IMG/VR virus record: IMGVR_UViG_3300032516_000003
Span: 129,341-193,340 of that record
Length of the DNA: 64,000 nt
From: a virus
Direction: 5' to 3' (one strand)
Part shown: positions 6,014-53,377 of the stretch, in pieces
Position numbering within the stretch: position 1 is the first letter of the stretch
Layout of the letters: every line of letters starts with the position of its first letter
The notes under the pieces: generated by a model
Databases searched by the model: none
The model's input: the letters and a program-made list of their open reading frames with translations, nothing else
Told to the model about the DNA's origin: nothing
Program-made: the position numbers and the translations under genes

Positions 6014-6030
6014 TGCTGGGAGGGCGTTGC

Positions 6031-21163: not shown

Positions 21164-21675
21164 CCCAGCAGCTACAGGGCCTGGATGGCATTCCTGGGGT
21201 GAGCGACACCTTCAACTCGTTCATCCAGACGGTGCGCCTCTTCATGCGGGATCACCCCCAGCTCAACCGGCTGATCAAGGGTGAGGAATCCTCAGACCGG
21301 ATGGTTGCCTGGGGCATCCTGGACTTTCTCAGCGACTTCGCGGGGACGCCTCCGGACCTGGGCTTCTTCCCGCTGGACCAGCTGCTGGAGCGCCACCTGC
21401 AGTCCTTCGCCGTGCGAGGAACTGCCTGTGCGCTGATGCAGTCGGTGGGCATCCTGATGACCAGGAACCACCTTCCCTTCTCCGACGGCGGGATCTCCGT
21501 GGCTGTCAACGACAAGGCGCCGCAGATGATGGCCTGGATCCGCGACATGCAGTCGAAGTACGAGCAGCAGAAGGTGCAGATCAAGGTCGCGATGAACATC
21601 AGCCAGATCCTGGGGTCATTCAGCGGATGTCACTCGGAACTATTCTTCGTGAATGGCTGGTATGGGATATACTAG
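21160..21675 (+). CDS. Hypothetical protein (171 aa)
   Basis: ATGA overlap with the upstream ORF. Confidence 0.4.
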   Translation: MTQQLQGLDGIPGVSDTFNSFIQTVRLFMRDHPQLNRLIKGEESSDRMVAWGILDFLSDFAGTPPDLGFFPLDQLLERHLQSFAVRGTACALMQSVGILMTRNHLPFSDGGISVAVNDKAPQMMAWIRDMQSKYEQQKVQIKVAMNISQILGSFSGCHSELFFVNGWYGIY

Positions 21676-21754
21676 TTTCATGTTGACAACGGACAGTCAG
21701 CTGGAGCAAACTGACTCATGGAGGTGGCATAAGCAAGCCACTAGGAGGTTATCC

Positions 21755-22684
21755 ATGGGTCGGCCACGAGTACTAGACCACGAAGAGATCGTTCGCCTGT
21801 ACCAAGAGAACAAGACCACTGAGGAGATAGGTCAACTGGTGGGCTGTAGTGGACGTCAGGTACGGGAAGTAGTGAGCAGCAGGAACATTCCAAAGCGGTC
21901 TGGGCACCGGAAGAACACGTTGGATCACGTAGCCATCATAGAGGCGTACGAGTCCGGCAAATCAGCGGAGCAGGTAGCGACAGAATTTAGCTGCTCCAAG
22001 GCCGGTGTCTGGCACATTCTCGCCTTGCATGGTGTGCCTACCAGAGAGGGCGCCAAGCGCCACACCACACAAGAACGGCTCGGCTTCGAGCCTACTGTTG
22101 TGTGGTTGCAACGCGAGCTGGACAAGCACCAGACCGCCGCTGCAGTAGCTAGGGCCAATGACATCCCCTACGGCACCTTGATCGAGTGGATGATGAAGCT
22201 AGGAGTAGGGCGTCCAGTCTGGCGTGGTGGGCCGGGTCCGGCAGGCAGTCCTGTCAGGCAGGACATCCCGATCAAGGAAGCCATCGAGCTGTCTAAGAGT
22301 GGGGTGGTCTACCGGGTGCTGGCCAACAAATACAATGTTTCCTACGGTGTGATCGTGCGTCGTATGAAAGAGGCTAGTCACCGGGCACCAAGGGACAAGC
22401 ACCGCAAACACCCGACTGACGTGCCCTATGCCAATGCGCCGTACCAGCACCGCAAGATCATGCACGAACTTGGCATCATCAAGTGTGAGATCTGTGGTGA
22501 GGGCAGGGCACTGGATTTCTGCCACATCGTGGCACGCAAGAATGGCGGACCAACCGCGAAGGAGAACTGCCTCGTGTTGTGTCCGCTTCACCATCGGCTG
22601 TACGATACCGACAAGCTGGACGTTGGCGAGAGCGCCACCATCTGCCGCAAGGTTCGTAAAGCGAGGAAGCTGTACTGTAGCTGA
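21755..22684 (+). CDS. HNH homing endonuclease with N-terminal repeated HTH modules
   Basis: C-terminal 'CEICGEGRALDFCHIVARKNGG...CLVLCPLHHRLYD' HNH motif. Three resolvase-like HTH repeats. AGGAGG RBS before the ATG at 21755. Confidence 0.7.
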   Translation: MGRPRVLDHEEIVRLYQENKTTEEIGQLVGCSGRQVREVVSSRNIPKRSGHRKNTLDHVAIIEAYESGKSAEQVATEFSCSKAGVWHILALHGVPTREGAKRHTTQERLGFEPTVVWLQRELDKHQTAAAVARANDIPYGTLIEWMMKLGVGRPVWRGGPGPAGSPVRQDIPIKEAIELSKSGVVYRVLANKYNVSYGVIVRRMKEASHRAPRDKHRKHPTDVPYANAPYQHRKIMHELGIIKCEICGEGRALDFCHIVARKNGGPTAKENCLVLCPLHHRLYDTDKLDVGESATICRKVRKARKLYCS

Positions 22685-31100: not shown

Positions 31101-31519
31101 GTTCGAACGACGTGTTCAACGAGCACCAGCTGAACATGGGCGCGGCCGGCGGCACCTACTGGGTCATCCAGGAAGTGGCCGGGGCACCGGTCTCGTGCCG
31201 GCACCAGCTGACCACGGACCTGACCAGCATCGAGACTCGGGAACTCTCGATCACGAAGATCGTGGACTTCACCGCGAAGTTCATGCGGGCCGGTCTGCGC
31301 AGCTTCATCGGCAAGTTCAACGTCACTCAGAGCTTCCTCGACACCCTGAGCACGGTGGTTCAGGGCCAGCTCGGCTTCCTGGCCGAGTCGGGCGTGATCA
31401 TCGGTGGCGACCTGAACAACATCGTGCAGGACGAGGCGGCTCCGGACACGGTGCTGATCGACGTCACCTTGGATGTCCCCTACCCCTGCAATTACATTAG
31501 ACTCACGCTTGTGATATAG
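28148..31519 (+). CDS. Tail sheath protein (1123 aa, jumbo-size)
   Basis: N-terminus 'LLRPGVEIIQEF..TVVTPTLVPCAVGPAFQI' aligns with T4 gp18 'LLSPGIELKETT..GKFQWGPAFQI'. Confidence 0.7.
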   Translation: MMATELLRPGVEIIQEFRTVSPTVVTPTLVPCAVGPAFQILEALKTDATGNRVLNTDAVASVAAVLTAANPGLYTGLDGLKLQVSINGGPTQEFTFSDPTAAGLSAGQVKDQIAAATVPPSGFGAYVSTLGGSSYLQLRSTGSGDGQTLKVLTGSANTILGFASNVIAEGCSTYQQAKVRIEQLMFPDPRGIIEELDIDEDSIRVFINTGAALKEVLRTSTFLRKKKSCRYTGGIISFPLTGLTGKKFSYKESANGTAQTFTFVSDPADVAALATAMNALIGSTKVYVNGSTKIDFVSSAGLFEVVTPAADTAHAMIGWTNGAKAWTLEVVDTGDGTTKSVFVIVDEDNFSAAAGAAQLLGTATISSPINVHNKTLQCAVNGDHVQEVIFDGGPIIPGTAFDGVAIGTLVLNLLVNGAAKVVTFSTGPDLTIAQAIAEINAAAGTTVCYRSNSTGVSQPTTGTFIAFQVGGATTVAGGSIVAVYASSTAWAKMGFAGTVDIAQTNTLTEIITQLNATFGTGFAVNATNKLQLNSLTTGDESKLEIFSGTANTLLGFTQGQVGNGAPFPPAVGDALYGDGSLVGYVVQVAPGGYTNRLKLDRKVALDYGAAAMYVEAMGLVTPLPANRPTPDLVVDLSGAVTVKNDILRNTEGTPIVATGSLVLSYKALRLDVSSGADEPALLNLSDTTDLDDALEPVNADNPLALQLYFALINATGITVAGIGVDAVSAGNPDGTPEAYSRACSFLQAQEVYALAPCSQDPTVHQIFSTHVTSMSEPDNKGERIVLICPEMPGEAIPKLATSGTDGDSTATTNEFDTKVPSLATDVLNAGVNPVGTIPVSSGLYLTITTNTKRYNISALSSTKITIRVAFSPGENDDDFYAEDNLPGDLLSETFAIKVRGEELVDSNGKPDYEKIAQAYQDLGKSYGNRRVIMVAPELVGANVDGTEQKLKGYYLCGAVAGMIGRLPPQQGFTNYPVTGFTRVFGSNDVFNEHQLNMGAAGGTYWVIQEVAGAPVSCRHQLTTDLTSIETRELSITKIVDFTAKFMRAGLRSFIGKFNVTQSFLDTLSTVVQGQLGFLAESGVIIGGDLNNIVQDEAAPDTVLIDVTLDVPYPCNYIRLTLVI

Positions 31520-40070: not shown

Positions 40071-40140
40071 CCATCCTGGGAGGCAAGAGTCGAGGCAAGA
40101 GTCGAGGCAAGAGTCGAGGCAAGAGTCGAGGCAAGAGTCA
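40071..40140. repeat. Tandem 12-bp repeat (caagagtcgagg) x ~5.5
   Basis: Directly visible: gaggcaagagtc repeated in an intergenic region. Confidence 0.85.
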
Positions 40141-41608: not shown

Positions 41609-41852
41609 AGGGGCTCGTTCTGCTCTATGACCCTCTTCAAATAGGGCGGCCGACCGGGATTGTCAGCCCTCGGTTGTCCTGGGTGGCGTTACCGAATAGT
41701 GAATCGAAGATATCCGTCACTGTCGGTGGTCAGCTTGCGTGGCTCGGAACGATAGGGGGAGATCACTTGGCCGTCCTCGGAGACCCTGTACCCCAGATCA
41801 AAAGCCTTGATGATCCACCCGTCTCCTCTGGAGCGCATCGTACCTCCTGTAG

Positions 41853-42191
41853 TGGACTGGTCGGGAATCGAACCCGAGTCCTGCGGAGCTTTGAGGCGAG
41901 TACTACGTGCGTAGCTCCCTTACGAGAGCGCGACGGCGTGTTGGTCCGGTACGGCCGTCATCCCCGGTACTGCAGGGCGCCTTGCGGCACCTCCACCATC
42001 CCTCTTTCTGTTGCCGGGAGCTCTGAGGGCTTCCCCGCTACTCCCACCCCAGCTTACGCTACGGCGCGGAGCGGCTGGCGGACGATGTTGTCGTTCGCTT
42101 TTCAGTTTGATCGGATTGTTGAAGGGGCCATCCGATCAACCCCTGCACGCACTCGCCTCTCTGTCTCCCCAGTCGAAACCATTTCCAGCCC
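41853..42191 (-). ncRNA. ssrA: tmRNA (SsrA); tag peptide ANDNIVRQPLRAVA*
   Basis: 5' 'GGGCUGGAAAUGGUUUCGACUGGGG' and 3' 'GGGUUCGAUUCCCGACCAGUCCA' match E. coli tmRNA ends. Acceptor pairs GGGCUGG/CCAGUCC. Tag ORF GCG AAC GAC AAC ... GUA GCG UAA at 42054..42098. Confidence 0.75.
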
Positions 42192-43780: not shown

Positions 43781-44290
43781 TCACGGCTCAAGTTCCACCG
43801 TCCAGTAATCAGCCCACTCAGGTGGGACGTCGTGTAGTCTCAATCTAGGATTATAGGCCGGTATCCAGCTCGGTCTCACTGGTTCCCGGATCAGCCGCAT
43901 GTCGGCCTGTACCGGCGTACGGTTGGCCTTGGCCGCGTTGCAGGGCACGCAGCTCATGACGATGTTCTCCCACACGGTCTTGCCGCCCTGCGCCCGGGGG
44001 ACGACGTGATCGTAGGTGAGCTCTCCTGATGGCAGACGAGTCCCACAGTACTGACACCTGCCGTGGTCCCGGGCCAACACATTGGCCCGGCTGAACTTCA
44101 CCCGCTGCTTGCTGCGATGCACCGAGTTGTTCAGGCGCACGACCGCTGGCATCTGGATGCCCTCATGCACGGGCGTGCCGTACTCTTCGAGGACGGAGGC
44201 CCGCTCACGAGCGATGTAGCCCATGGCTCTTTGCCAGCTGACGACGTTCACCGGGAGGTAACTGCTGTCCAGTACGAGGGTCCGTTGCAT
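43781..44290 (-). CDS. HNH endonuclease (start adjusted; the upstream part of the track ORF is tRNA sequence)
   Basis: 'CQYCG...LTYDHVVPRAQGG...WENIVMSCVPCNAAK'. Confidence 0.65.
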   Translation of the reverse strand: MQRTLVLDSSYLPVNVVSWQRAMGYIARERASVLEEYGTPVHEGIQMPAVVRLNNSVHRSKQRVKFSRANVLARDHGRCQYCGTRLPSGELTYDHVVPRAQGGKTVWENIVMSCVPCNAAKANRTPVQADMRLIREPVRPSWIPAYNPRLRLHDVPPEWADYWTVELEP

Positions 44291-44358: not shown

Positions 44359-44438
44359 GTGCCCAGGGCCGGACTCGAACCGGCATGCTTTCGCACAGAG
44401 GTTTGAGCTCTGCGGGTCTACCAATTTCCCCACCTGGG
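44359..44438 (-). tRNA. tRNA-Leu(CAA), type II
   Basis: Acceptor GCCCAGG/CCUGGGC, T-arm CCGGUUCGAGUCCGG, anticodon loop CUCAAAC. Confidence 0.7.
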
Positions 44439-44441
44439 CAG

Positions 44442-44520
44442 ATGGTCCGAGTGGCCGGATTTGAACCGGCGGCCCCCTGTACCCCGACCGTGCCGTCTAC
44501 CACTGACGTACACCCAGTTA
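44442..44520 (-). other. tRNA-like element (T-arm + acceptor present, no clean anticodon arm)
   Basis: T-arm GCCGG-UUCAAAU-CCGGC and CCA-like end, but the anticodon stem cannot be folded. Confidence 0.3.
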
Positions 44521-45057
44521 TCCTTGATCGTTGTGTGCTTCTGCGTGGTGGTTAGCGCAGAGCAAGATGCAGCCCCGAATCTCTTTTTTGACCCGCTCCC
44601 AGCCCCAGTACTTGAAGCCACGAAAGGCCACGTCCTTTTTTCTGGGATCTCGGTGGTGTATGTGTAGCGCAGCAAGACACTTCTTGTAGCCGCAGACCTT
44701 GCAGCTGCCTCCTAGGACGTCCACTACTCTTTGCTTGATCTCTTCGGCCCTTCGATACCTGTCTTTGTTGTGGCAGGCTACGCAGAGCTTTCGTTTGTTC
44801 CCATAGAACTGTTGTGGGTTACGCTCACCACACGGGCACTTGCGGGGCAAGGACAGGTCCTTGGGGTGTTTACCTGCAGGACCACGCCGAGTTCTGAGAT
44901 CATGCTTCTTCAACCAGTAGCGCACGGCAGTAGGACCGATCCGCAGACACGCTGACATCTGCTTAATGGTGTAATCCTGCTTGATCAACTTTTCCAGCTC
45001 TACTGAAGACACAACCTTCCCTATTTTCCTGGCCATGGGTGCAGCGTACAGTAGCAC
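44518..45057 (-). CDS. HNH homing endonuclease with N-terminal HTH
   Basis: 'CKVCGYKKCLAALHIHHRDP...CILLCANHHAEAH'. Confidence 0.7.
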   Translation of the reverse strand: MLLYAAPMARKIGKVVSSVELEKLIKQDYTIKQMSACLRIGPTAVRYWLKKHDLRTRRGPAGKHPKDLSLPRKCPCGERNPQQFYGNKRKLCVACHNKDRYRRAEEIKQRVVDVLGGSCKVCGYKKCLAALHIHHRDPRKKDVAFRGFKYWGWERVKKEIRGCILLCANHHAEAHNDQG

Positions 45058-45182
45058 AGTTTAGCTGTCAAGCGTGCGCTACCAGGCTGCGCCACACTCG
45101 GTTGGGAGCGGGGGGAGGATGTGCGCCTCCTGATCGTCACCGGCTTATGAGGCCGGCCGCCTCTGTTGGCATTCCCCGCTAG

Positions 45183-45255
45183 TGGCTGATCTCAGAGTCG
45201 AACTGAGTCATGCGCCTTATGAGAGCGCCAAGGTGACCACCACCTTACATCAGCC
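45183..45255 (-). tRNA. tRNA-Met(CAU)
   Basis: Acceptor GGCUGAU/AUCAGCC, anticodon loop CUCAUAA, T-loop UUCGACU. Confidence 0.75.
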
Positions 45256-45364
45256 GTGCTACGATTCGGTCATGCAACTGCACAGCACGATCAACTTCAA
45301 GCCTACCTGGGGTGAGCTCTTCGGCCTTGCCCTGTTCGTCTTGTGGACCTTCATCGAAGGCCGG

Positions 45365-45390
45365 TGCGCGCGGAGGGATTCGAACCCTCA
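45365..45390 (-). other. tRNA 3'-fragment (T-arm + 3' acceptor strand only)
   Basis: GAGGG-UUCGAAU-CCCUC-CGCGCGC with no 5' partner. Overlaps the next tRNA. Confidence 0.4.
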
Positions 45391-45402
45391 CTGACCAGCT
45401 AG

Positions 45403-45487
45403 TGCCGACGGGGCGACTCGAACGCCCAATGACCTTTCGATCACCTCGCTTTAAGGGAGGCCCGTTAGCCAGTTCCGGCACGTCGGC
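45403..45487 (-). tRNA. tRNA-Leu(UAA), type II
   Basis: Acceptor GCCGACG/CGUCGGC, loop CUUAAAG, long variable arm. Confidence 0.65.
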
Positions 45488-45902
45488 CTACATTCTTTCC
45501 TCTGTACGTAGGTGTGAATGCGTGACAGTTGGGACAGAGTAGCCTCAGGTTCTTTACTGCCTGGTTGTGCTTGTCCCCATCGCAATGATGAATCTCCAGT
45601 GGTATCGCCTCTCCTGACCACTTTGTTCTGCGGCACCCTTCACACTGGTGTCCGCGTTCTTCTATGAGCCTGCGCTTGATCGCTGCCTTGTGCTTTAGTT
45701 GTGACAGTTCTTTCCGGCACAGCTTCTGTCCATGACGCTTCGCCACTTCTGGATCAACTGGGATGTGGCCGATCCACCCCTTTATGGTCCTCCAGTGGAC
45801 TCCAGTGTGGTGGGCTATTGATCGGAAACCGTGTCCCAACTTCCGTAGCTGAATGGCTTCCTTGTACTGCTCCTGCTTCCCCTTATAGGGTCCTCTAAGC
45901 AT
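45465..45902 (-). CDS. HNH homing endonuclease
   Basis: 'CEGCRRTKWSGEAIPLEIHHCDGDKHN...LRLLCPNCHA'. Confidence 0.7.
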   Translation of the reverse strand: MLRGPYKGKQEQYKEAIQLRKLGHGFRSIAHHTGVHWRTIKGWIGHIPVDPEVAKRHGQKLCRKELSQLKHKAAIKRRLIEERGHQCEGCRRTKWSGEAIPLEIHHCDGDKHNQAVKNLRLLCPNCHAFTPTYRGKNVGRRAGTG

Positions 45903-45962
45903 TCAACCAGGCTAGCAATTCACAGCAGTAGCGTCAAGCCACACTAGCTATTACGATTTGGT

Positions 45963-46045
45963 GCCAGCGAGAGGAATCGAACCTCCATGAGCTTTCGCCC
46001 GCTCGGTCCTAAGCCGAGTGCGTCTGCCGTTTCGCCACGCTGGCG
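45963..46045 (-). tRNA. tRNA-Leu(UAG), type II
   Basis: Acceptor GCCAGCG/CGCUGGC, loop CUUAGGA. Confidence 0.75.
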
Positions 46046-46050
46046 TTGGC

Positions 46051-46124
46051 CTGCCCGGAGGGATTCGAACCCCCACTTGCTCGGTTCGTAGCCGAGAGTC
46101 TTCTCCAATTGGACCACGGGCAGA
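46051..46124 (-). tRNA. tRNA-Arg(ACG)
   Basis: Acceptor CUGCCCG/CGGGCAG, loop CUACGAA. Confidence 0.75.
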
Positions 46125-46128
46125 TGGT

Positions 46129-46202
46129 GTCGCTGGCCAGATTCGAACTGGCAGCCGCTCGGGTCGGAGCCGAGTGCTCGATCCAATCGAGCTGCAGCGA
46201 CG
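46129..46202 (-). tRNA. tRNA-Arg(CCG)
   Basis: Acceptor GUCGCUG/CAGCGAC, loop CUCCGAC. Confidence 0.75.
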
Positions 46203-46209
46203 GTGTGGT

Positions 46210-46282
46210 GTCCTAGCCCAGACTCGAACTGGGAACGGAGGTTTAGGAGACCTCCATGATCTCCGCTTTCACCACTAGGACT
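46210..46282 (-). tRNA. tRNA-Arg(CCU)
   Basis: Acceptor GUCCUAG/CUAGGAC, loop CUCCUAA. Confidence 0.75.
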
Positions 46283-46631
46283 TGTAGCGTGCGTCAAATG
46301 CCCGTTTAGCGGCTTTGCAGCCGGCACACCGGCATCCGTAGTTCGAGTAGCGTGATTTGGTGCCGTGTGATGGCTCGCGCTGGGCGCCCGATTCTTTCTT
46401 GTGACACTCCGAGCAGAGGACTTCGCACTTTGCTAGTTCCTGACGCCGCCGCGCTTCACTCCAGGACCAGATCCTATGTGTGACCTTTGTTGAGCGGTCC
46501 ACGTGGTGGACTTCCAGCTGTTCAACTGAGCCGCAGCGAGCGCATTTCTGCCCTACAAACCAGTTCTCGCGTCTTGCTTTGATCCATTCTCGATTGTATG
46601 CACGCTGCAGTTCTTGGTCCTTGTATGGCAA
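46275..46631 (-). CDS. HNH homing endonuclease (start uncertain, probably TTG after internal GGAGG)
   Basis: 'CARCGSVEQLEVHHVDRS...CEVLCSECHKKE'. The N-terminal part of the track ORF overlaps a tRNA-like element. Confidence 0.6.
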   Translation of the reverse strand: MPYKDQELQRAYNREWIKARRENWFVGQKCARCGSVEQLEVHHVDRSTKVTHRIWSWSEARRRQELAKCEVLCSECHKKESGAQREPSHGTKSRYSNYGCRCAGCKAAKRAFDARYKS

Positions 46632-46696
46632 GGTACCTCCATCCAATTGGGCGACAGGGCCGAGGGGTGACGATATTCGGTGAGGCGATGTGCTAG

Positions 46697-46765
46697 GTGC
46701 CCTGCCGAGGAGTTGAACCCCGCACTCTGCGCTTAGAAGGCGCTGATGGCGTCCGCACCGCAGGG
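46697..46765 (-). tRNA. tRNA-Arg(UCU)-like, short/irregular D-arm (possible pseudo-tRNA)
   Basis: Acceptor GCCCUGC/GCAGGGC, loop CUUCUAA, only 69 nt. Confidence 0.4.
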
Positions 46766-47074
46766 CTCTTGCAGCTTGCGCTTCTCGTTCGGAGGGTCCT
46801 TGTCTTTGGCACCGTTGGCCTTGTAGGGCTTGCACAGTAGGCAGCCAGCTCTCCGATTCTTGGGACGCTTGCGCTTGTGGTGCACGATCACCTCTCAGTC
46901 ACAGCAGCGTTGCGATTGATGTGCCTGTTCCACCTGATCGCTGCGGCAGCGTAGGCGGACTGCTTGTACTGGCTGTACATCCGCATCGGCCATCTGACTG
47001 GTAGACGGCCCAGAGGACCGTGCAGCCGCGTCAGCACCTTCTTCGCCTGCCTCAGCTTCATGGTGTCCTCCTGG

Positions 47075-47145
47075 AGCTACCGACAGGATTCGAACCTGTG
47101 TGGCTCGGGTTGCAGCCGAGTGCCTCGCCTCTTGGCTACGGTAGC
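47075..47145 (-). tRNA. tRNA-Cys(GCA)
   Basis: Acceptor GCUACCG/CGGUAGC, loop CUGCAAC, discriminator U. Confidence 0.8.
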
Positions 47146-47149
47146 ATGG

Positions 47150-47320
47150 CGGGGGACCTGGGGATCGAACCCAGCCCGGCTCCGAGAGGGCATCATCTTG
47201 CACCGCCCTGAGCCTGGACGGTTGCGGGTCTTGCGACCCAGCGGGCCTGGCAGGAATCGAACTCAGCAGCCAACCGGGTTTGGAGTCCAGTGCGCTTACC
47301 CAGAGCGTCTCCCCTTCTTC
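47150..47320 (-). other. ~170-nt tRNA-like element(s) with aberrant arms
   Basis: 5' GGGGAGAC..., D-arm, anticodon-like loop CUCCAAA (CCA = Trp), two UUCGAU T-loops, 3' GUCCCCCGCCA. Cannot be folded into a canonical cloverleaf. Confidence 0.3.
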
Positions 47321-47736
47321 CATTTTCCTAGTCTTGCGTGCAACCGGCGATGGCAGTTGGCGCAGAGAACTCTGCACTTCTTGATCTCCTTAATCACCGT
47401 CCCCCAACTGAGACCTCGCTGGTACATGAGTTGGTTGATGCCTGCTTCCTTTTGACTTGGGTCTCGGTGGTGAAACTCCAGCACCACTGGATCAGCTTCG
47501 CCACAACTACATGAGTGCTTGAAAAGGTACTGTGTCAGCTGCTGTGCGATCTCCTCCCTGCGCTTCTGGTTGCTGACCTTAGCCCGAGCAAGGTACTTGG
47601 TCCTGTCCTTCTTGTAGTGCTCTCGGTTGTAGGCAGCTTTGCAGGTGATGCAGAGACTTTGGTAGCCGCGTCTAGAGTGGCGGTAGAACTGCTTCACTGG
47701 AAGTGGACCACAGTTCTTGCAGGTGGCTGTCCTCAT
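47296..47736 (-). CDS. HNH homing endonuclease (start adjusted to MRTATCKNCG)
   Basis: 'CSCGEADPVVLEFHHRDPSQK...CRVLCANCHRRLHA'. Confidence 0.65.
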   Translation of the reverse strand: MRTATCKNCGPLPVKQFYRHSRRGYQSLCITCKAAYNREHYKKDRTKYLARAKVSNQKRREEIAQQLTQYLFKHSCSCGEADPVVLEFHHRDPSQKEAGINQLMYQRGLSWGTVIKEIKKCRVLCANCHRRLHARLGKWKKGRRSG

Positions 47737-47762
47737 GTCTCTGAAGACTAGCACACATTTGG

Positions 47763-47834
47763 AGCCGGAGAGTGGACTTGAACCACCACCCTCGTCCTTA
47801 CCAAGGACGCGCACCACCTTTGTGCTACTCCGGC
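47763..47834 (-). tRNA. tRNA-Thr(GGU)
   Basis: Acceptor GCCGGAG/CUCCGGC, loop UUGGUAA. Confidence 0.75.
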
Positions 47835-47842
47835 ATGATCAG

Positions 47843-47915
47843 TGGATGCGAAGGGATTCGAACCCTCTGCCTCAGGCTTGCAAAGCCCGCGCTCTCCCAA
47901 GTGAGCTACGCACCC
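47843..47915 (-). tRNA. tRNA-Ala(UGC)
   Basis: Acceptor GGGUGCG with G3:U70, loop UUUGCAA. Confidence 0.8.
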
Positions 47916-47919
47916 ATGG

Positions 47920-47991
47920 TCCGAGGTGAGGGAGTTGAACCCCCGGCATCCGGTTTGTAGGACCGGCGTTCCTCCGTTGAACTAACCTCGG
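47920..47991 (-). tRNA. tRNA-Val(UAC)
   Basis: Acceptor CCGAGGU/ACCUCGG, loop CCUACAA. Confidence 0.7.
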
Positions 47992-47992
47992 G

Positions 47993-48064
47993 TGCTCCCG
48001 GCGGGTATCGATCCCGCTCCTGCGGCTTGAAAGGCCACTGACCTAGCCAGTAGTCTACGGGAGC
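47993..48064 (-). tRNA. tRNA-Glu(UUC)
   Basis: Acceptor GCUCCCG/CGGGAGC, loop CUUUCAA, T-loop AUCGAUA. Confidence 0.65.
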
Positions 48065-48468
48065 GAGTGGTGGACCCTGTGGCAGTTCGCACAGAGCACC
48101 TCACACTTGCCCACTTCCTCCCAGATGCGATCTATGTTGAAGCATCTAGTGATCATAGTGGCGATGTTGTCCGTCTTGGTGCCGCCGACGTGATGTAGAT
48201 CTAGCGCAGCTGCGTGCTCATTGTAGCCACATGACTGGCAACCAATGCTCATCTTGTAGCTATCGATGACGTCCTTTGCCTCGGCGCGGACTCTCTTAGT
48301 TCTTGCCCGCACTTGTTTGTCTCGTCCTCGATTGTAGTAGCTGTCAGAGTCAATCTCTCGGTGGCACGGCTTACACCAGCTCTGACGTCTGCCCTTGGAC
48401 TTGTAGCGCCAGGCGAAGTCCTCTACATCTCTTTCATGACCGCATTTGGGGCATACCTTGGTCTTCAT
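48055..48468 (-). CDS. HNH homing endonuclease
   Basis: 'CQSCGYNEHAAALDLHHVGG...CEVLCANCHRVHH'. Confidence 0.7.
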   Translation of the reverse strand: MKTKVCPKCGHERDVEDFAWRYKSKGRRQSWCKPCHREIDSDSYYNRGRDKQVRARTKRVRAEAKDVIDSYKMSIGCQSCGYNEHAAALDLHHVGGTKTDNIATMITRCFNIDRIWEEVGKCEVLCANCHRVHHSLP

Positions 48469-48513
48469 GCAGTCATGATAGTGTGTATCGAACTGCTCCG
48501 CAAGAGTGAAAGG

Positions 48514-48585
48514 TGACCCCAGGGGGAGTTGAACCCCTCGTTTACGGGTTGAGAACCCGTTTGCCTACCGTTAGCAGATGGGGCC
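48514..48585 (-). tRNA. tRNA-Glu(CUC)
   Basis: Acceptor GGCCCCA/UGGGGUC, loop UUCUCAA. Confidence 0.65.
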
Positions 48586-48591
48586 ATTGAT

Positions 48592-48789
48592 CTACTTCTT
48601 GATGGTGGAGAAGCAGCGGGGGCAGCAGATGACGGTATCGACTTCCCTCTTGTCGTTCGCCTTGTAGAGGATGTTGTTGTTGCGCGGGACACTCCACTGG
48701 AAGTCCCGGCCGCAGAGGCAGACGGCACTGCCCTCCCCCTCGTTCTCTTGGATCACTACTCTGATGTTGGTGCCCATTGTCTCCCTCAT
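48592..48789 (-). CDS. Small zinc-ribbon protein (65 aa)
   Basis: CLCG...CCPRC. Confidence 0.35.
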   Translation of the reverse strand: MRETMGTNIRVVIQENEGEGSAVCLCGRDFQWSVPRNNNILYKANDKREVDTVICCPRCFSTIKK

Positions 48790-48793
48790 GTTG

Positions 48794-48866
48794 AGCCGCC
48801 CCCGAGACTCGAACTCGGTACCTTCCGCTTACAAGGCGGATGCTCTGCCAGGTGAGCTATGGCGGC
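48794..48866 (-). tRNA. tRNA-Thr(UGU)
   Basis: Acceptor GCCGCCA/GGGCGGC, loop CUUGUAA. Confidence 0.7.
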
Positions 48867-48901
48867 AACTACTATCACCTTGATCGATCTGCGTCAAGTG
48901 G

Positions 48902-48974
48902 AGCTGGAGGTGGGAGTCGAACCCACTGCCTCCGGTTTACGAAACCGGCGCTCTGCCTGTTGAGCTTCACCAGC
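48902..48974 (-). tRNA. tRNA-Thr(CGU)
   Basis: Acceptor GCUGGUG/CUCCAGC (one mismatch), loop UUCGUAA. Confidence 0.65.
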
Positions 48975-49050
48975 GTTGGTAGGGACGGCGGCCCGTTAGT
49001 CCGCTCCTCGTTCCTAAGGGATTGCGTGCACGATTACACCACGTCCCCAG

Positions 49051-49123
49051 CTGGGTGGGATGGAGTCGAACCACCATCTCCTCTGATGGACTAGAGGCGC
49101 TTTTCCGATTGCGCTACCACCCA
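49051..49123 (-). tRNA. tRNA, anticodon undetermined (irregular 8-nt anticodon loop AGUCCAUC)
   Basis: Good acceptor UGGGUGG/CCACCCA and T-arm. Anticodon stem CCUCU/AGAGG leaves an 8-nt loop. Confidence 0.45.
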
Positions 49124-49127
49124 ATGG

Positions 49128-49212
49128 TGCCATCACCCGGATTCGAACCGGGACGCCCTTTCGAGCACAGCGTTCTGAGCGCTGCGGGTCTACCTGATTT
49201 CCCCATGATGGC
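49128..49212 (-). tRNA. tRNA-Leu(CAG), type II
   Basis: Acceptor GCCAUCA/UGAUGGC, loop CUCAGAA. Confidence 0.75.
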
Positions 49213-49217
49213 GTTGG

Positions 49218-49305
49218 TGCGATCGGCCGGAGTCGAACCGGCACCCAGCTTTCGCCGGACCAGGCCCTCAACCTGGCGGGTCTACCAAGATTTCCCCACG
49301 ATCGC
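49218..49305 (-). tRNA. tRNA-Leu(GAG), type II
   Basis: Acceptor GCGAUCG/CGAUCGC, loop UUGAGGG. Confidence 0.75.
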
Positions 49306-49309
49306 TTGG

Positions 49310-49381
49310 TCGGGGTGACTGGAATTGAACCAGCGACCTCACGGTCCCGAACCGTGCGCGCTACCCCTGCGCTACACCCCG
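49310..49381 (-). tRNA. tRNA-Pro(CGG)
   Basis: Acceptor CGGGGUG/CACCCCG (C1-G72), loop UUCGGGA. Confidence 0.75.
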
Positions 49382-49761
49382 ATTGCTGTCAGGCTCCGGT
49401 ACGTGCCCCCATCGTTGTGGCTCATGCGTAGGTAACCCTGCAGCCAGTTGATCAGGTCACTTGCTTCCCACGCCACCAGTAGCCAGAGGGGAGACCAAAG
49501 CGCTCCCAGAAGGGCCCAAGCTAGCAGTAGAACAATGGACTTGATCAGTGGGGCTAGAGCCGATGTTCTTCTCTGCACGGCTGTGAGGGATTGACTGTAG
49601 CTTACGCTACCCCACACGAAGCCACTTGAAGCGACGTGAGGCCAAGGGCGGAAGGCCTTGATCCCCACACCGTAGGCTCGTGCAACTAAGACGTGCGTCA
49701 GCTCGTGAAGCACGAGAGTCAGAGGAGCACCAACTACGCCTAGGACTATCCAGTACCACAT
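49372..49761 (-). CDS. Small polytopic membrane protein with HExxH ('HELTH') motif; metalloprotease-like
   Basis: Three or four TM helices. HExxH within the first helix (site-2-protease/M50-like arrangement). Confidence 0.4.
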   Translation of the reverse strand: MWYWIVLGVVGAPLTLVLHELTHVLVARAYGVGIKAFRPWPHVASSGFVWGSVSYSQSLTAVQRRTSALAPLIKSIVLLLAWALLGALWSPLWLLVAWEASDLINWLQGYLRMSHNDGGTYRSLTAIGV

Positions 49762-49776
49762 AGGACGAGTCTACCA

Positions 49777-49850
49777 GAGCGGGTGACGGGATTTGAACCC
49801 GCAATCTCCAGCTTGGAAGGCTGGCACCGGTACCAGTCCGGCAGCACCCG
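49777..49850 (-). tRNA. tRNA-Gly(UCC)
   Basis: Acceptor GCGGGUG/CACCCGC, loop CUUCCAA, discriminator U. Confidence 0.75.
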
Positions 49851-49893
49851 CGTGACAGAAAGACAGAATGGGAAGAAGGGGTCGGGTTGTCGT

Positions 49894-50304
49894 TTACTGC
49901 ACGATCTTCTTGATCTCTTCCGCCAATGACTCAGTACGGACTGTCAAGTTCCGTATCAGCCGTGGCAGAATCTGTGCTGCTTCGATTCGCTGTCGTAGAG
50001 GAGCCGAGCTCACGGGGAGGACGCAGTTTTCCTCACCGTCCACATCCTCGATCACCACCAGCTGGTAGCCTCCCTTCTCCTTCCGGTAGGCCAGGCTGTA
50101 GGCGATCTCGACTGGTGGGCCTTCCGATTCTGGGTCGTTGGCCTCTTCTGTAGCCCCCTTCATCGTGATGCGGGCCGTGGCACACGAGAACTCACCTAGA
50201 GCCTCCTCGGTATGCCGGAAGTGGGCGTTCAGCTTCTCCACCAGACACTTCAGCTCCTCTTCCTTCTCTACCAGACGCTGCAGCTCAAGTCGTTGCTCGT
50301 TCAT
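49894..50304 (-). CDS. Coiled-coil hypothetical protein (136 aa; start adjusted to MNEQRL)
   Basis: The track ORF's N-terminal extension runs toward tRNA sequence. Confidence 0.4.
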   Translation of the reverse strand: MNEQRLELQRLVEKEEELKCLVEKLNAHFRHTEEALGEFSCATARITMKGATEEANDPESEGPPVEIAYSLAYRKEKGGYQLVVIEDVDGEENCVLPVSSAPLRQRIEAAQILPRLIRNLTVRTESLAEEIKKIVQ

Positions 50305-50346
50305 GGTCAGTACCCCTGTCAATGAGTACGGACCCCTTCTTCCCGG

Positions 50347-50429
50347 CGGAAGATCCGAGAGTCGAACTCGGCTAGCCTTGCGGCCGTACTCGCCTTCCAA
50401 GCGAGCTGTGCACCTCGCACGCATCTTCC
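50347..50429 (-). tRNA. tRNA-Ser(GGA), type II
   Basis: Acceptor GGAAGAU/AUCUUCC, loop UUGGAAG, discriminator G. Confidence 0.7.
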
Positions 50430-50433
50430 ATGG

Positions 50434-50505
50434 AGCGGCCAGTGAGAGTTGAACTCACGATCTCCACCTTGGCAAGGTGGCGCCTTACCACTAGGCAATG
50501 GCCGC
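50434..50505 (-). tRNA. tRNA-Gly(GCC)
   Basis: Acceptor GCGGCCA/UGGCCGC, loop UUGCCAA. Confidence 0.75.
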
Positions 50506-50557
50506 AAGAAATGGGGGTTGCTCAGCAGCTGATCTTCACGGTTCTTGTACGCCATCG

Positions 50558-50646
50558 CGGAGCGGAGAGGAATCGAACCTCCAGACCCTCATGAGGCCTC
50601 CGGTTTAGCAAACCGGTACAGGGCACCAATGCCTGACGGCCGCTCC
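50558..50646 (-). tRNA. tRNA-Ser(GCU), type II
   Basis: Acceptor GGAGCGG/CCGCUCC, loop UUGCUAA, discriminator G. Confidence 0.75.
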
Positions 50647-50694
50647 ATTGTTTCCCGGCTTTGTTTGGGAGAGCCGGGAAGAACTCCGCTAGCC

Positions 50695-50765
50695 TTGAGA
50701 CGGTGGGTCTTGAAGCCACACTCTCCAGCACCCTAGCTGGTGCTCTACCATTGAGCTACGTCCCT
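50695..50765 (-). tRNA. tRNA-like with 6-nt (or 8-nt) anticodon loop UAGGGU; possible pseudo/suppressor tRNA
   Basis: Canonical D-arm GCUCAAUGGUAGAGC. Acceptor GGGACG/CGUCUC (G3:U70). Anticodon stem CCAGC/GCUGG encloses only 6 nt. Confidence 0.35.
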
Positions 50766-51030
50766 CGGTACTGCGCCAGTTGATCCTTAGTCGTCTTAAC
50801 TCGATGTCTGATTGACGTGGTTGTTTGGCTGCCTGTTGATCTGGATCTCACTACTCCCAGAACGCCTGGGCTACTTCGCGATCACCAGCCACCTGCAGCA
50901 TCACAGTCGTCGCTCGTGATCAGCCTCTATGGGGCCAGGTCACGATCTCACCTCCATGGGCATTGAGCCGGAGTAGGTTGGACATTCTACCACGAACCAG
51001 CCCCCACTAATCGAGGCAGGGGTCTGGGCA

Positions 51031-51101
51031 GCGCCCTATGAGGGACTCGAACCCTCTTCACTCGCTAGACAGGCGAGCTGCGCTCCCAGCGCATCATAGG
51101 G
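51031..51101 (-). tRNA. tRNA-Asp(GUC)
   Basis: Acceptor GCCCUAU/AUAGGGC, loop CUGUCUA, discriminator G. Confidence 0.75.
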
Positions 51102-51310
51102 CAGACCCGGAGACCTTGCGCCCCGCCCTAGGCAGGGACCAGTACTGCAGATCAGGTGAGGGGCCCTATCCACTGATCTTCTGGCGTCTAGTGGCCTTCC
51201 GGTTGGCCGTGAAATAGAACGGTCGCTCCAGTGGCGCCGTCAACGAACTGGAGACTGGGTGGCTAACATCGTAGGACGGTGACGTACTAGTTAGCGACCT
51301 GACCGTTCAG

Positions 51311-51393
51311 CGGAGAGTAGCGGAATCGAACTGCCTGGCTTTCACCAGCCCACGCCTTCGAAGCGTGTTAGGGACCATTCCCTGGTACTCTCC
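51311..51393 (-). tRNA. tRNA-Ser(CGA), type II
   Basis: Acceptor GGAGAGU/ACUCUCC, loop UUCGAAG, discriminator G. Confidence 0.65.
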
Positions 51394-51454
51394 ATTACGG
51401 GAAGCGTGCCGCCGCTGCACCACGTTCGCCCACGCAGAGTGTTGCCCTGCGGCT

Positions 51455-51480
51455 AGCGCCCGGCGGGATTCGAACCCGCG
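51455..51480 (-). other. tRNA 3'-fragment (T-arm + 3' acceptor strand)
   Basis: GCGGG-UUCGAAU-CCCGC-CGGGCGC without a 5' partner. Overlaps tRNA-Ala(GGC). Confidence 0.4.
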
Positions 51481-51492
51481 TCTCTTCCCTAG

Positions 51493-51565
51493 TGGATCCG
51501 ATCGGAGTCGAACCGACAGCCTCCTGAATGCCATTCAGGCGCTCTCCCAGCTGAGCTACGGACCC
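51493..51565 (-). tRNA. tRNA-Ala(GGC)
   Basis: Acceptor GGGUCCG (G3:U70), loop AUGGCAU. Confidence 0.75.
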
Positions 51566-51569
51566 GTCG

Positions 51570-51640
51570 TGGATCGACGGAGAGTCGAACTCCGATTTGC
51601 GGCTTGCGGAACCGCCGTCCTCCCATTGGACGATCGACCC
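51570..51640 (-). tRNA. tRNA-Ala(CGC)
   Basis: Acceptor GGGUCGA (G3:U70), loop UCCGCAA. Confidence 0.65.
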
Positions 51641-51689
51641 GTGTTATGCTCTCCCAAATGTCGGCATCTTGCCGATGAGGAGAAGGACA

Positions 51690-51953
51690 ATGATCAAGTA
51701 CCTACTATGTCTGGTTGCGATGCTCTTCGTGGCGTGCAGCAAGCCAGTGGCCCCGGCTGCTCCGACTTCTGCTCCGGCCAAAGTGGAGACCCCTGCTGCG
51801 CCAGCTCCTGCCTCCGTGCCGGTACTGAAGGTCATGCCGCCAGCCAAAGCTCCTGCTGCGGCCAAGGTGACAGTCAAGGCCGGACCGATCATCACAGTGA
51901 TTCCTGCCAAGGCCACCACCAAGCTTCCGCCCAATAACCTCAAGATCAAGTAA
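51690..51953 (+). CDS. Pro/Ala-rich lipoprotein (signal peptide + lipobox FVAC); o-spanin-like or superinfection-exclusion candidate
   Basis: 'MIKYLLCLVAMLFVAC|SKPVAP...'. GAGGAGAAGGA RBS. Plus-strand gene inside the minus-strand tRNA array. Confidence 0.5.
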   Translation: MIKYLLCLVAMLFVACSKPVAPAAPTSAPAKVETPAAPAPASVPVLKVMPPAKAPAAAKVTVKAGPIITVIPAKATTKLPPNNLKIK

Positions 51954-51962
51954 TGCTGCGTA

Positions 51963-52033
51963 GGTGATCGGTGGAAGTCGAATCCACACCTACAGGGCCA
52001 CAACCTGCCGTGCTACCGCTACACCACGACCAC
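51963..52033 (-). tRNA. tRNA-His(GUG)
   Basis: Acceptor GUGGUCG/CGAUCAC, loop UUGUGGC, discriminator C. Confidence 0.75.
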
Positions 52034-52035
52034 AG

Positions 52036-52110
52036 TGCGACCCGCTGGATTCGAACCAGCCACCCTTCGCTTATCAAGCGAATGCTCTAACCAAGATGAG
52101 CTAGGGTCGC
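52036..52110 (-). tRNA. tRNA-Ile(GAU)
   Basis: Acceptor GCGACCC/GGGUCGC, loop UUGAUAA. Confidence 0.8.
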
Positions 52111-52115
52111 GTTAG

Positions 52116-52188
52116 AGTGGGAGGCGAGATTTGAACTCACATCGGGCTGCTTAACAGGCAGCTGCCTGAACCATTAGGCTACTCCCAC
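52116..52188 (-). tRNA. tRNA-Asn(GUU)
   Basis: Acceptor GUGGGAG/CUCCCAC, loop CUGUUAA. Confidence 0.75.
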
Positions 52189-52192
52189 ATGG

Positions 52193-52264
52193 TCGAGGTG
52201 GCCGGGATCGAACCGGCGACCCCCTGGTCCCAGGCCAGGTGCGCTACCCCTGCGCTACACCTCG
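52193..52264 (-). tRNA. tRNA-Pro(UGG)
   Basis: Acceptor CGAGGUG/CACCUCG, loop CCUGGGA. Confidence 0.75.
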
Positions 52265-52265
52265 G

Positions 52266-52337
52266 TTCGGCCGGCACGATTCGAACGTGCGACTACTCGG
52301 GTCAAAGCCGAGTGTCCTACCACTGGACGACGGCCGA
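52266..52337 (-). tRNA. tRNA-Gln(UUG)
   Basis: Acceptor UCGGCCG/CGGCCGA (U1-A72), loop CUUUGAC. Confidence 0.75.
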
Positions 52338-52399
52338 TCACAATTGTGAAGTACACCGCTTCTGTGAGTCGCGACATCAGGAAACGATGTACTTCGTGG

Positions 52400-52470
52400 T
52401 GCTCCAGTGCGGAGTTGAACCGCAACCTTCTGGGCTTCAACCAGACGCTCTACCTCTGAGCTACCGGAGC
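52400..52470 (-). tRNA. tRNA-Phe(GAA)
   Basis: Acceptor GCUCCGG/CUGGAGC, loop UUGAAGC. Confidence 0.75.
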
Positions 52471-52475
52471 CTCAG

Positions 52476-52548
52476 TCCACCCCGGGGGAGTCGAACCCAC
52501 CGTCAACCGCTTATAGGGCAGCCGTTAGAACCGCTTAACTAGGGGTGG
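52476..52548 (-). tRNA. tRNA-Ile(UAU)-like (AUA decoder) — anticodon assignment tentative
   Basis: Acceptor CCACCCC/GGGGUGG, loop CCUAUAA. Confidence 0.5.
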
Positions 52549-52617
52549 TTGTGCCCGGCAAGACGCCGGGCTTCGTGACCACGTATCGCTATTCGTTTGT
52601 CACAGAGCGTTGCGCAG

Positions 52618-52691
52618 TTCGGGGTGAGAGACTTGAACTCCCAATCTTCCGGGTCAGAGCCGGACGCTCTAGCCAGTTGAGCCAACCCCGA
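52618..52691 (-). tRNA. tRNA-Gln(CUG)
   Basis: Acceptor UCGGGGU/ACCCCGA, loop CUCUGAC. Confidence 0.75.
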
Positions 52692-52707
52692 TCATCTAGT
52701 ACGCGCC

Positions 52708-52780
52708 GTGGGTCCACAGAGATTCGAACTCTGTTCTCCCGGGTAAGAGCCGGGTGCTTCTCCTGCTAAGCTTTGGACCC
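52708..52780 (-). tRNA. tRNA-Lys(CUU)
   Basis: Acceptor GGGUCCA/UGGACCC, loop CUCUUAC. Confidence 0.7.
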
Positions 52781-53089
52781 TCTACGTCTCTGACGCCAGT
52801 GTAGTTTCGCGTGACAGTTGAGGCACATCACTTCGCACTTCTTGATCTCTTCTTCTAGCCGCGCAAGAGACCATCCCATCCTAGACGCACTCCCCAACTC
52901 AAACGACTTGTTGTTGGGATCTGTGTGGTGAAAGACAAGGGCGGCCTTGTGCCTCTCGCCACATGTGCAGAACGTCTTTCTCTCCTCTATGAACTCCTTG
53001 ATCTGCCTTCGTTGCTCTAGCAGCCGCTGCGCTGCCTTGTCCCGGTTCTTCTGGTAGTACCTAGCGTTCACTTCTCTGCTGTTGCTCAT
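52766..53089 (-). CDS. HNH homing endonuclease (107 aa)
   Basis: 'CTCGERHKAALVFHHTDPNNK...CEVMCLNCHAKLHW'. Confidence 0.7.
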   Translation of the reverse strand: MSNSREVNARYYQKNRDKAAQRLLEQRRQIKEFIEERKTFCTCGERHKAALVFHHTDPNNKSFELGSASRMGWSLARLEEEIKKCEVMCLNCHAKLHWRQRRRGSKA

Positions 53090-53174
53090 ACACCGTCAGT
53101 AGCATCTCTTACTCACCTCTGTCAAGTAAGAGTCAGGTGCTCTGCCGGTCGAGCTAGGCGCGTATGATCTTCAG

Positions 53175-53247
53175 TGCCTCCGGCAGGAGTCGAACCTGCA
53201 ACTTTCGGGGTAAAAGCCCGCTACGCTGCCAGTTGCGTCACGGAGGC
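53175..53247 (-). tRNA. tRNA-Lys(UUU)
   Basis: Acceptor GCCUCCG/CGGAGGC, loop CUUUUAC. Confidence 0.7.
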
Positions 53248-53292
53248 TCATGTACAAGTCATAAGCCCCGCGTTTGAGTCGTGCCTTCATGG

Positions 53293-53377
53293 TGCACGTG
53301 GCTGGAGTCGAACCAACCTGGGCGCTATGTCCAACCGGGTTACGGCCGGTCCCCGAGCCCTACGGGCCTACACGTGC
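53293..53377 (-). tRNA. tRNA-Tyr(GUA), type II
   Basis: Acceptor GCACGUG/CACGUGC, anticodon stem ACCGG/CCGGU, loop CCGUAAC. Confidence 0.6.

Follow-up and report, generated by a model that had tools for sequence, protein, structure and literature searches.

A 64,000-nucleotide (nt) stretch of the viral record IMGVR_UViG_3300032516_000003 (positions 129,341 to 193,340 of that IMG/VR record; hereafter, the window) carries on its minus strand a complete one-piece transfer-messenger RNA (tmRNA) gene, ssrA. The gene is genuine: it matches the tmRNA family over its full length, lies in phage DNA, is conserved among phage-like contigs and has helices that covary between relatives. We consider it likely that the gene encodes a functional phage tmRNA, inherited in a lineage of uncultivated jumbo phages of ~185-200 kb as part of a same-strand translation block with ~40 transfer RNA (tRNA) genes and a gene for ribosomal protein uS12.

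A preliminary description of this DNA, made from its letters and a list of its open reading frames (ORFs), had called a tmRNA gene at 41853-42191. The Infernal search that it proposed confirmed the call. Rfam cmscan matched RF00023 to window positions 41850-42191 on the minus strand at 96.8 bits (E 1.7e-36), above the gathering score of 47, and the match spans model positions 1-374 of 374 without truncation, which makes the gene full-length. The earlier coordinates correspond exactly to the stretch from G1 through the discriminator A; this A, at 41853, is probably the 3' end of the mature tmRNA. An identical tmRNA is present in an independent Logan assembly, on a 2.8-kb contig (L007). The gene has every feature of RF00023 that can be tested in the sequence except the full set of downstream pseudoknots, which is variable in the family.

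Relatives in a lineage of large phages

A search with a pattern from the 3' end of the gene returned 20 IMG/VR contigs, 11 of them of 148-536 kb. A second pattern, composed of the 3' strand of pseudoknot 1 (PK1) and the first tag codons, returned 13 metagenome stretches and two IMG/VR contigs (197.8 and 194.3 kb). Relatives in the close clade score 100-127 bits against RF00023, and ten relatives come from phage-like contigs that are 184-198 kb long where complete (including contigs of 184.7, 194.3 and 197.8 kb). The PK1-tag pattern of the clade was found in no tmRNA in a scan of one genome per species for 185,579 species of bacteria and archaea, and blastn of the tmRNA against 50,697 deposited phage records gave no match. 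Thus, the gene belongs to a phage lineage and is not a recent capture from a sequenced host. The single match in the genome scan fell by chance in a coding region of Streptomyces without a tmRNA, and was rejected.

The window itself is phage DNA, with genes for the large terminase, the tail sheath and the baseplate (Table 1), and its source is a metagenomic contig of 193.7 kb. The terminase is 25-30% identical to those of isolate phages, and at most 30% identical to that of any deposited phage. On the minus strand the order is the array of ~40 tRNA genes, an HNH endonuclease gene, tnpB, 687 nt, the tmRNA gene, 513 nt and the uS12 gene. The preliminary description had recognized uS12 and TnpB as the flanking genes, in agreement with their Pfam domains, and had offered a phage-encoded ssrA as one of two readings of the locus. 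This reading is borne out by the structural genes in the window and by relatives that lie beside tRNA arrays in phage contigs of similar size.

Covariation of the tmRNA helices

Helices were drawn from the window sequence, and their pairs were counted on a MAFFT alignment of ten sequences (A3). With the structure as given, 83.7% of the cells were paired, against 38-47% when the partners were slid by 1-3 columns. Changes on both sides were seen in 36 pairs; the mean over shuffles was 20, and none of 500 shuffles reached 36. A pseudoknot search on the window tmRNA as a single sequence gave scores no better than those of shuffles, and for this reason comparative evidence alone was used for the pseudoknots.

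In the tRNA-like domain, all seven pairs of the acceptor stem form, the stem is 100% paired across the relatives and three of its pairs show double changes. Its G3:U70 pair is invariant in nine distinct relatives, and the discriminator is A339. The T-arm is likewise 100% paired, with compensatory changes, and helix 2 consists of three segments that are 84-100% paired and contain 14 pairs changed on both sides. In PK1, the first stem (S1) is 100% paired and the second (S2) 90%, and both contain compensatory changes, between G-C and U-A and between A-U and G-C. The resume codon follows PK1 by 8 nt, which agrees with the described spacing of ~10 nt (PMC3929946).

Downstream of the tag codons the picture is more variable. 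Seven of the eight pairs of helix 5, the hairpin that holds the last tag codons and the stop, can form. On a sub-alignment (A5), helix 5 and the adjoining element PKa (18 pairs together) were 88% paired, against 36-52% when slid; double changes occurred in four of the 18 pairs, one in helix 5 and three in PKa. PKa is therefore listed as a probable pseudoknot, with moderate support. Around the next element, PKb, the MAFFT alignments were 1-2 nt out of register, and a test for complements at fixed spacing was used instead: three different 6-mers are each followed, at a distance of 15-16 nt, by their exact complement (4-14% in shuffles). The preliminary description had asked for the pseudoknots to be examined; PK1 stood in both stems, while the downstream pseudoknots proved to be fewer than three and less well supported. 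E. coli tmRNA retains its tagging activity when pseudoknots PK2-PK4 are replaced, but not when PK1 or the tRNA-like domain is. The elements essential in E. coli are all intact in the window tmRNA, namely the acceptor stem with G3:U70, the T-arm, helix 2, PK1 and the tag frame with its stop codon.

The tag peptide

The tag codons read GCG AAC GAC AAC AUC GUC CGC CAG CCG CUC CGC GCC GUA GCG UAA and encode ANDNIVRQPLRAVA followed by the stop. The frame is closed by a UGA two codons before the resume codon, and so the tag cannot begin earlier. Alignment and sequence gave the same reading as the preliminary description, which had proposed the GCG resume codon, the 14 codons, the UAA stop and the peptide. 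The tag opens with an alanine codon, has its stop codon in the loop of helix 5 and ends in a non-polar, alanine-rich C-terminus; its polar N-terminal part, ANDN, occurs in many bacterial tags.

The core ANDN.V is common to ten related tmRNAs, and most of their tags end in AAA. Within the clade the tags are ANDNIVRQPLRAAA (several members), ANDNVGRQPLRAAA, ANDNVVRAPLRAAA, ANDNVELAPARLAA and ANDNVERAQLMAA; a more distant relative, which lies beside a uS12 gene 71% identical to that of the window, has the tag ANDNCVGEPVRLAV. The peptide is kept across the relatives despite 2-6 synonymous codon changes. In comparison with L008, the tag codons show five synonymous and three non-synonymous differences, and in comparison with L019 two and one. 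The preliminary description had stressed that the tag ends in AVA rather than in the usual LAA. The AVA ending is real, but it deserves little weight, since close relatives end in AAA. In the window the valine codon GUA replaces the GCG of the relatives. This private change from alanine to valine lies within helix 5 and adjoins a compensated pair: A132-U141 stands where the relatives have G-C, a double change that keeps the helix intact.

Between L046/L048 and L019, the tag codons are identical in nucleotide sequence and the adjacent PKa nearly so, while helix 2, PK1 and PKb are strongly diverged. This pattern suggests that the tmRNA gene has evolved as a mosaic or has recombined internally.

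Proposed function

From membership in the tmRNA family we infer how the gene would be expressed, charged and used for tagging, and what would become of the tagged proteins. Processing would trim the 5' and 3' ends of the transcript, and a nucleotidyltransferase would supply the CCA that the gene does not encode. Alanyl-tRNA synthetase would then charge the tmRNA with alanine through G3:U70 and the discriminator A. With EF-Tu and SmpB (supplied by the host or encoded by the phage outside the window), the charged tmRNA would enter the empty A site of stalled ribosomes. Translation would resume on the GCG, append (A)ANDNIVRQPLRAVA and end with release at the UAA, and the truncated protein would be marked, most likely for host proteases. 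During infection, such a tmRNA could maintain the recycling of ribosomes while host RNA synthesis or stability is compromised. A role of this kind would fit the pattern of translation genes in huge phages.

The tmRNA might instead serve a purpose other than plain rescue. One possibility is that it takes the place of a host tmRNA cleaved or shut off in the course of infection or defence; another is that its phage-specific tag (…PLRAAA/AVA) escapes or redirects recognition by host adaptors and proteases, possibly together with uS12. The tag family is indeed specific to the phage lineage, its signature being absent from the tmRNAs of the species genomes scanned, and the tag core is conserved across the clade. 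Moreover, the tmRNA gene lies together with uS12 and a near-complete set of tRNAs, all in one orientation, and the tRNA array of one relative, which also carries a tmRNA and a uS12 gene, contains a gene for an ArfB-like protein with an RF-1 domain (L010 1978-2322, JGI 3300069939; 114 amino acids (aa), tblastn against E. coli ArfB, E 1.4e-6). This last gene makes ribosome rescue a recurring theme in the group. Nothing in the sequence, however, separates the window tmRNA from one engaged in ordinary trans-translation, and the tag has the usual make-up of a polar N-terminal part and an alanine-rich, non-polar C-terminus. Nor is the pairing with uS12 fixed: the uS12 gene is not beside the tmRNA gene in L043 and is 5.5 kb away from it in L010. 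In the pre-accommodation complex from Thermus, S12 does not contact SmpB (PMC3929946). We regard a special role as unlikely. The same holds for its most far-reaching form, which we find doubtful: that the tmRNA, uS12 and the near-complete tRNA set constitute a lineage-specific module for taking over translation, in which the phage's own tag (ANDN.V..P.RAAA/AVA) would be handled unlike the host tag, or the phage tmRNA would substitute for a host tmRNA inactivated by infection or by an RNA-targeting defence, with uS12 remodelling the decoding centre.

Points against a functional gene

Several observations weigh against a functional phage tmRNA. ARAGORN, whose use the preliminary description had also proposed, did not detect the gene with default or relaxed thresholds, neither in a run on the whole window nor on the excised region with -ps down to 70. 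CCA is not encoded by the genome, the 3' sequence being ...CCAGUCC-A-CUA. The AVA ending of the tag is private to the window genome among the clade members compared. Two pseudoknot-like elements follow the tag instead of three, together with two plain hairpins, and the crossing helix of PKb (CCGG/CCGG) could not be told from chance in the relatives tested. No sigma-70-like promoter turned up on either strand in simple scans, and the sole terminator-like site from a simple scan lies on the opposite strand. Finally, a tblastn search of the 64-kb window, out of a genome of ~194 kb, detected no SmpB homologue (best E 0.14). The query was E. coli SmpB, 100% identical to database sequences; a scan of viral contigs with the same protein matched only the edges of enterobacterial prophages.

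Some of these features would also be expected of a tmRNA copy that had lost its function and was hitch-hiking or decaying, namely the rejection by ARAGORN, the missing CCA, the unusual end of the tag and the smaller number of pseudoknots, and the region is rich in selfish elements. The pseudoknots can be traced among the relatives. A hairpin element of ~29 nt after the stop codon is present in L008 and L049 and absent from the window and from five other clade members, which leaves this sub-lineage with one pseudoknot fewer. The shorter architecture recurs in at least five other distinct genes (L019, L039, L042, L046 and L041) and is thus a trait of the lineage rather than a lesion. As to ARAGORN, the program finds most of the relatives and misses, besides the window gene, five of the 23 other distinct related tmRNA genes tested. 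Neither changing Val13 to Ala nor restoring CCA nor swapping in the ends of L019 rescued detection, and so the miss could not be traced to a single feature. The elements essential in E. coli are intact and covary across the relatives, and the one amino-acid change private to the window goes with a base change in helix 5 that compensates for it. A decaying copy is accordingly quite improbable, and we retain the view of a functional, inherited phage tmRNA.

The integration-junction question and the TnpB remnant

The second reading offered in the preliminary description was an integration junction. In that case the locus would be either a bacterial ssrA gene into whose 3' end a prophage or island had inserted, or an attL/attR fragment. 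This idea has some grounds, since ssrA is a classic integration target, dozens of IMG/VR contigs from enterobacterial prophages have E. coli smpB right at their edge, and a mobile-element gene, tnpB, lies near the tmRNA gene. As in prophages and islands that target ssrA, the tmRNA gene is thus close to mobile DNA. In other respects the window differs from them. The gene is full-length, and the duplication of the 3' segment for which the preliminary description had suggested a search was not seen: a 30-nt segment from the 3' end of the tmRNA gene has no second copy within the 64-kb window at 0-3 mismatches, and no repeat family in the window pairs the 3' end with another copy. No integrase domain was found in the flanking ORFs tested; the 3' flank consists of small ORFs without a Pfam family, followed by uS12. 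Bacterial flanks are likewise lacking at the gene, which has tnpB, HNH and tRNA genes on its 5' side and, further away on the other side, phage structural genes, in contrast to the enterobacterial prophage contigs, which end at smpB. The tRNA array on the 5' side is common to the relatives, and relatives in contigs of similar size carry the same tmRNA gene. The tnpB gene is truncated, does not encode a site-specific recombinase and lies 687 nt upstream of the 5' end of the tmRNA gene, not at the 3' end, where integrases act. With no second copy of the 3' end in the window, no integrase among the flanking ORFs tested and no bacterial flank, we rejected an att junction, and with it the idea that the tmRNA gene is an integration scar; both are very unlikely.

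The tnpB gene encodes the OrfB_IS605 and Cas12f1-like TNB domains, with the RuvC D/E/D and the CxxC...CxxC motifs, as in TnpB of IS200/IS605 elements. Unlike these, the window copy lacks its first ~80 residues and abuts an HNH gene at its 5' end, and tnpA was not found among its neighbours. At 86% identity, its residues 7-282 correspond to residues 87-362 of P0123, a homologue of 379 aa; the other homologues among the matches listed are mostly of 353-424 aa. A few nt after the tnpB stop codon begins a remnant of 39 codons, the end of a gene whose complete form is a 244-aa ORF in L008, which indicates that the insertion of tnpB damaged that gene and not the tmRNA gene. There is no functional link between tnpB and the tmRNA. 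In L008, the flanking gene, tmRNA, uS12 and the downstream genes stand in the window order, without tnpB or HNH, at 74-93% nucleotide identity.

Logan contig L007 ends ~21 nt inside the 3' end of tnpB, which suggests a repeat or a polymorphic insertion.

That a bacterial ssrA was stitched into a phage contig during metagenomic assembly, for which the end of L007 at the tnpB repeat might be cited, is hardly credible, given that the segment from tmRNA to uS12 is identical in two assemblies and that L008 keeps the same gene order.

Comparison with known tmRNAs

Phage tmRNAs are already known, among them those of the Bxz1-type mycobacteriophages of cluster C. A Sinorhizobium jumbo phage, AP-J-162, carries one (PMC11242549), and huge phages carry tRNAs, release and recycling factors, tmRNA and SmpB (PMC7162821, Al-Shayeb et al. 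2020). The window gene thus adds an example to a known kind, and the preliminary description, in calling a phage-encoded ssrA rare, had overstated the case. With the tmRNAs of huge and jumbo phages it shares a large genome and the company of many tRNAs and other translation genes; it differs from them in its lineage, which is uncultivated and stands apart both in its terminase and in the absence of blastn matches among the deposited phage records. With E. coli SsrA and other bacterial one-piece tmRNAs it shares G3:U70, the T-arm, a long helix 2, PK1 before an alanine resume codon, a tag that ends in a hairpin and an alanine-rich C-terminus. In contrast to E. coli SsrA, it is phage-encoded, has no encoded CCA, ends its tag in AVA instead of LAA, escapes ARAGORN and has two pseudoknot-like elements and two plain hairpins after the tag in place of PK2-PK4.

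The picture of how tmRNA works is unchanged by these results. What they add to the translation genes of very large phages is a well-supported tmRNA conserved within its lineage, with an alignable family of about ten genes and clear covariation. They also bear on numbers. The main huge-phage study assigned tmRNAs with ARAGORN (PMC7162821) and would consequently have missed the window gene; as surveys based on this program miss part of the family, phage tmRNAs are probably under-counted. More unusual are two side findings, a phage clade that encodes the decoding-centre protein uS12 and a gene in the window resembling that for the major vault protein.

Neighbouring genes and other features

The uS12 protein may be more unusual in a phage than the tmRNA. 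It has intact PNSA and RVKDLPG motifs and an insertion of ~12 aa near the C-terminus relative to the E. coli protein. Its closest homologues are metagenomic proteins of 62-97% identity, one of them on a 441.9-kb IMG/VR contig; the named bacterial S12 proteins among the matches listed are 62-69% identical. The exact protein of the window is encoded on a 193,704-bp ENA contig (ERZ27248201, k141_3956766) and on L007. The main text of PMC6375957 does not mention uS12, a core protein of the decoding centre, among its 14 viral ribosomal proteins, and the S4/S1/S21/L7-L12 list of PMC7162821 does not include it either.

Table 1. Positions of the tmRNA gene, its parts and other features in the window
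Feature	Positions	Strand	Basis or remarks
One-piece tmRNA (ssrA), complete, 342 nt	41850..42191	-	RF00023 96.8 bits, full model; same gene in L007
Acceptor stem, 5' strand GGGCUGG	42185..42191	-	Pairs with 41854-41860 (CCAGUCC); includes G3:U70
PK1	42107..42143	-	S1 GGGG/CCCC (nt 49-52/65-68); S2 UUGAUCGGAU/AUCCGAUCAA (nt 53-62/76-85)
Tag frame, 14 codons + UAA, ANDNIVRQPLRAVA	42054..42098	-	Resume codon GCG 8 nt after PK1; peptide conserved in relatives
Helix 5 hairpin, nt 127-146	42046..42065	-	Last tag codons and stop; Val codon GUA at nt 130-132
PKa, probable pseudoknot, GGGAG/CUCCC + CCCUC/GAGGG	42000..42045	-	Comparative, sub-alignment A5
Hairpin GGUGCC-GCAA-GGCGCC	41976..41991	-	Complement 4 nt downstream in 6 of 7 distinct relatives; weak statistics
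PKb, tentative pseudoknot, GACGGC/GCCGUC + CCGG/CCGG	41932..41967	-	First helix supported, crossing helix weak
Helix 2 3' strand, T-arm (UCGGG-UUCGAUU-CCCGA) and acceptor 3' strand	41854..41910	-	Pairing in A3
Ribosomal protein uS12 homologue, 136 aa	40926..41336	-	PF00164, 120 bits; 513 nt downstream of tmRNA, same strand
Gene remnant, last 39 codons	42747..42863	-	tblastn, 82% identity to residues 206-244 of the 244-aa L008 ORF
tnpB, 5'-truncated, 296 aa	42879..43769	-	PF07282, PF01385; RuvC and zinc-finger motifs; N-terminal ~80 aa missing
HNH endonuclease abutting tnpB remnant	43781..44290	-	PF14279, PF01844; gene call from L006
~40 tRNA genes with small HNH-like ORFs between them	44359..53377	-	Same strand as tmRNA; ARAGORN and Rfam
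Large terminase with LAGLIDADG intein-like insert	6013-8955	+	LAGLIDADG_3 at aa 359-432; terminase homology split in two
Tail sheath gene	28148-31519		
Baseplate protein	112-1362		

ARAGORN counts 38 tRNA genes in the array, and Rfam adds those at 44446-44517 and 50695-50765. Arrays beside the tmRNA gene are also present in the relatives L010 (21 tRNAs), L044 (42), L046 (32) and L050 (15), and the order in L046 parallels that of the window. Three tRNA-like genes on the minus strand, at 44446-44517, 49050-49123 and 50695-50765, score 37.5-46 bits against the Rfam tRNA model and have abnormal anticodon loops: one loop is of 6 nt ('cc') and two are of 8 nt with four-base 'anticodons' (gggg and aggg). 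L010 and L044 have one such gene each. These could be frameshift-type tRNAs or decaying copies.

Genes for HNH proteins were found at 43781-44290, 44518-45057, 45465-45902, 21653-22684 and 62732-63343, and near 46400, 47350, 48080 and 52810. Several of them are the small ORFs between tRNA genes, and 38-nt segments that they share form a repeat family (D5). The segment 41907-41932 of the tmRNA gene and the 5' half of tRNA-Ala(UGC), at 47888-47913, constitute a 26-nt inverted repeat (88%), through which the tmRNA could pair with this tRNA over 23 of 26 nt; the repeat is most likely a by-product of a palindromic D-arm-like hairpin and the conserved GCUACGCAC motif.

Upstream of its tmRNA gene, L008, whose uS12 is 95% identical to that of the window, carries a WGR-PARP (poly-ADP-ribose polymerase) gene at 1-1428; no counterpart was found in the window. 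Elsewhere in the window, a 1339-aa ORF at 11897-15916 (plus strand) contains two Hint/intein regions and a LAGLIDADG domain. An 860-aa ORF at 57611-60193 (minus strand) matches MVP_shoulder (93.5 bits), Vault_3 (35.9 bits) and Vault (26.7 bits, just below the cut-off); a gene resembling those for vault proteins is unexpected in a phage. Finally, a 12-nt sequence, GAGGCAAGAGTC, is repeated five times in perfect tandem at window positions 40080-40139 and, if translated, would give a short repeated peptide.

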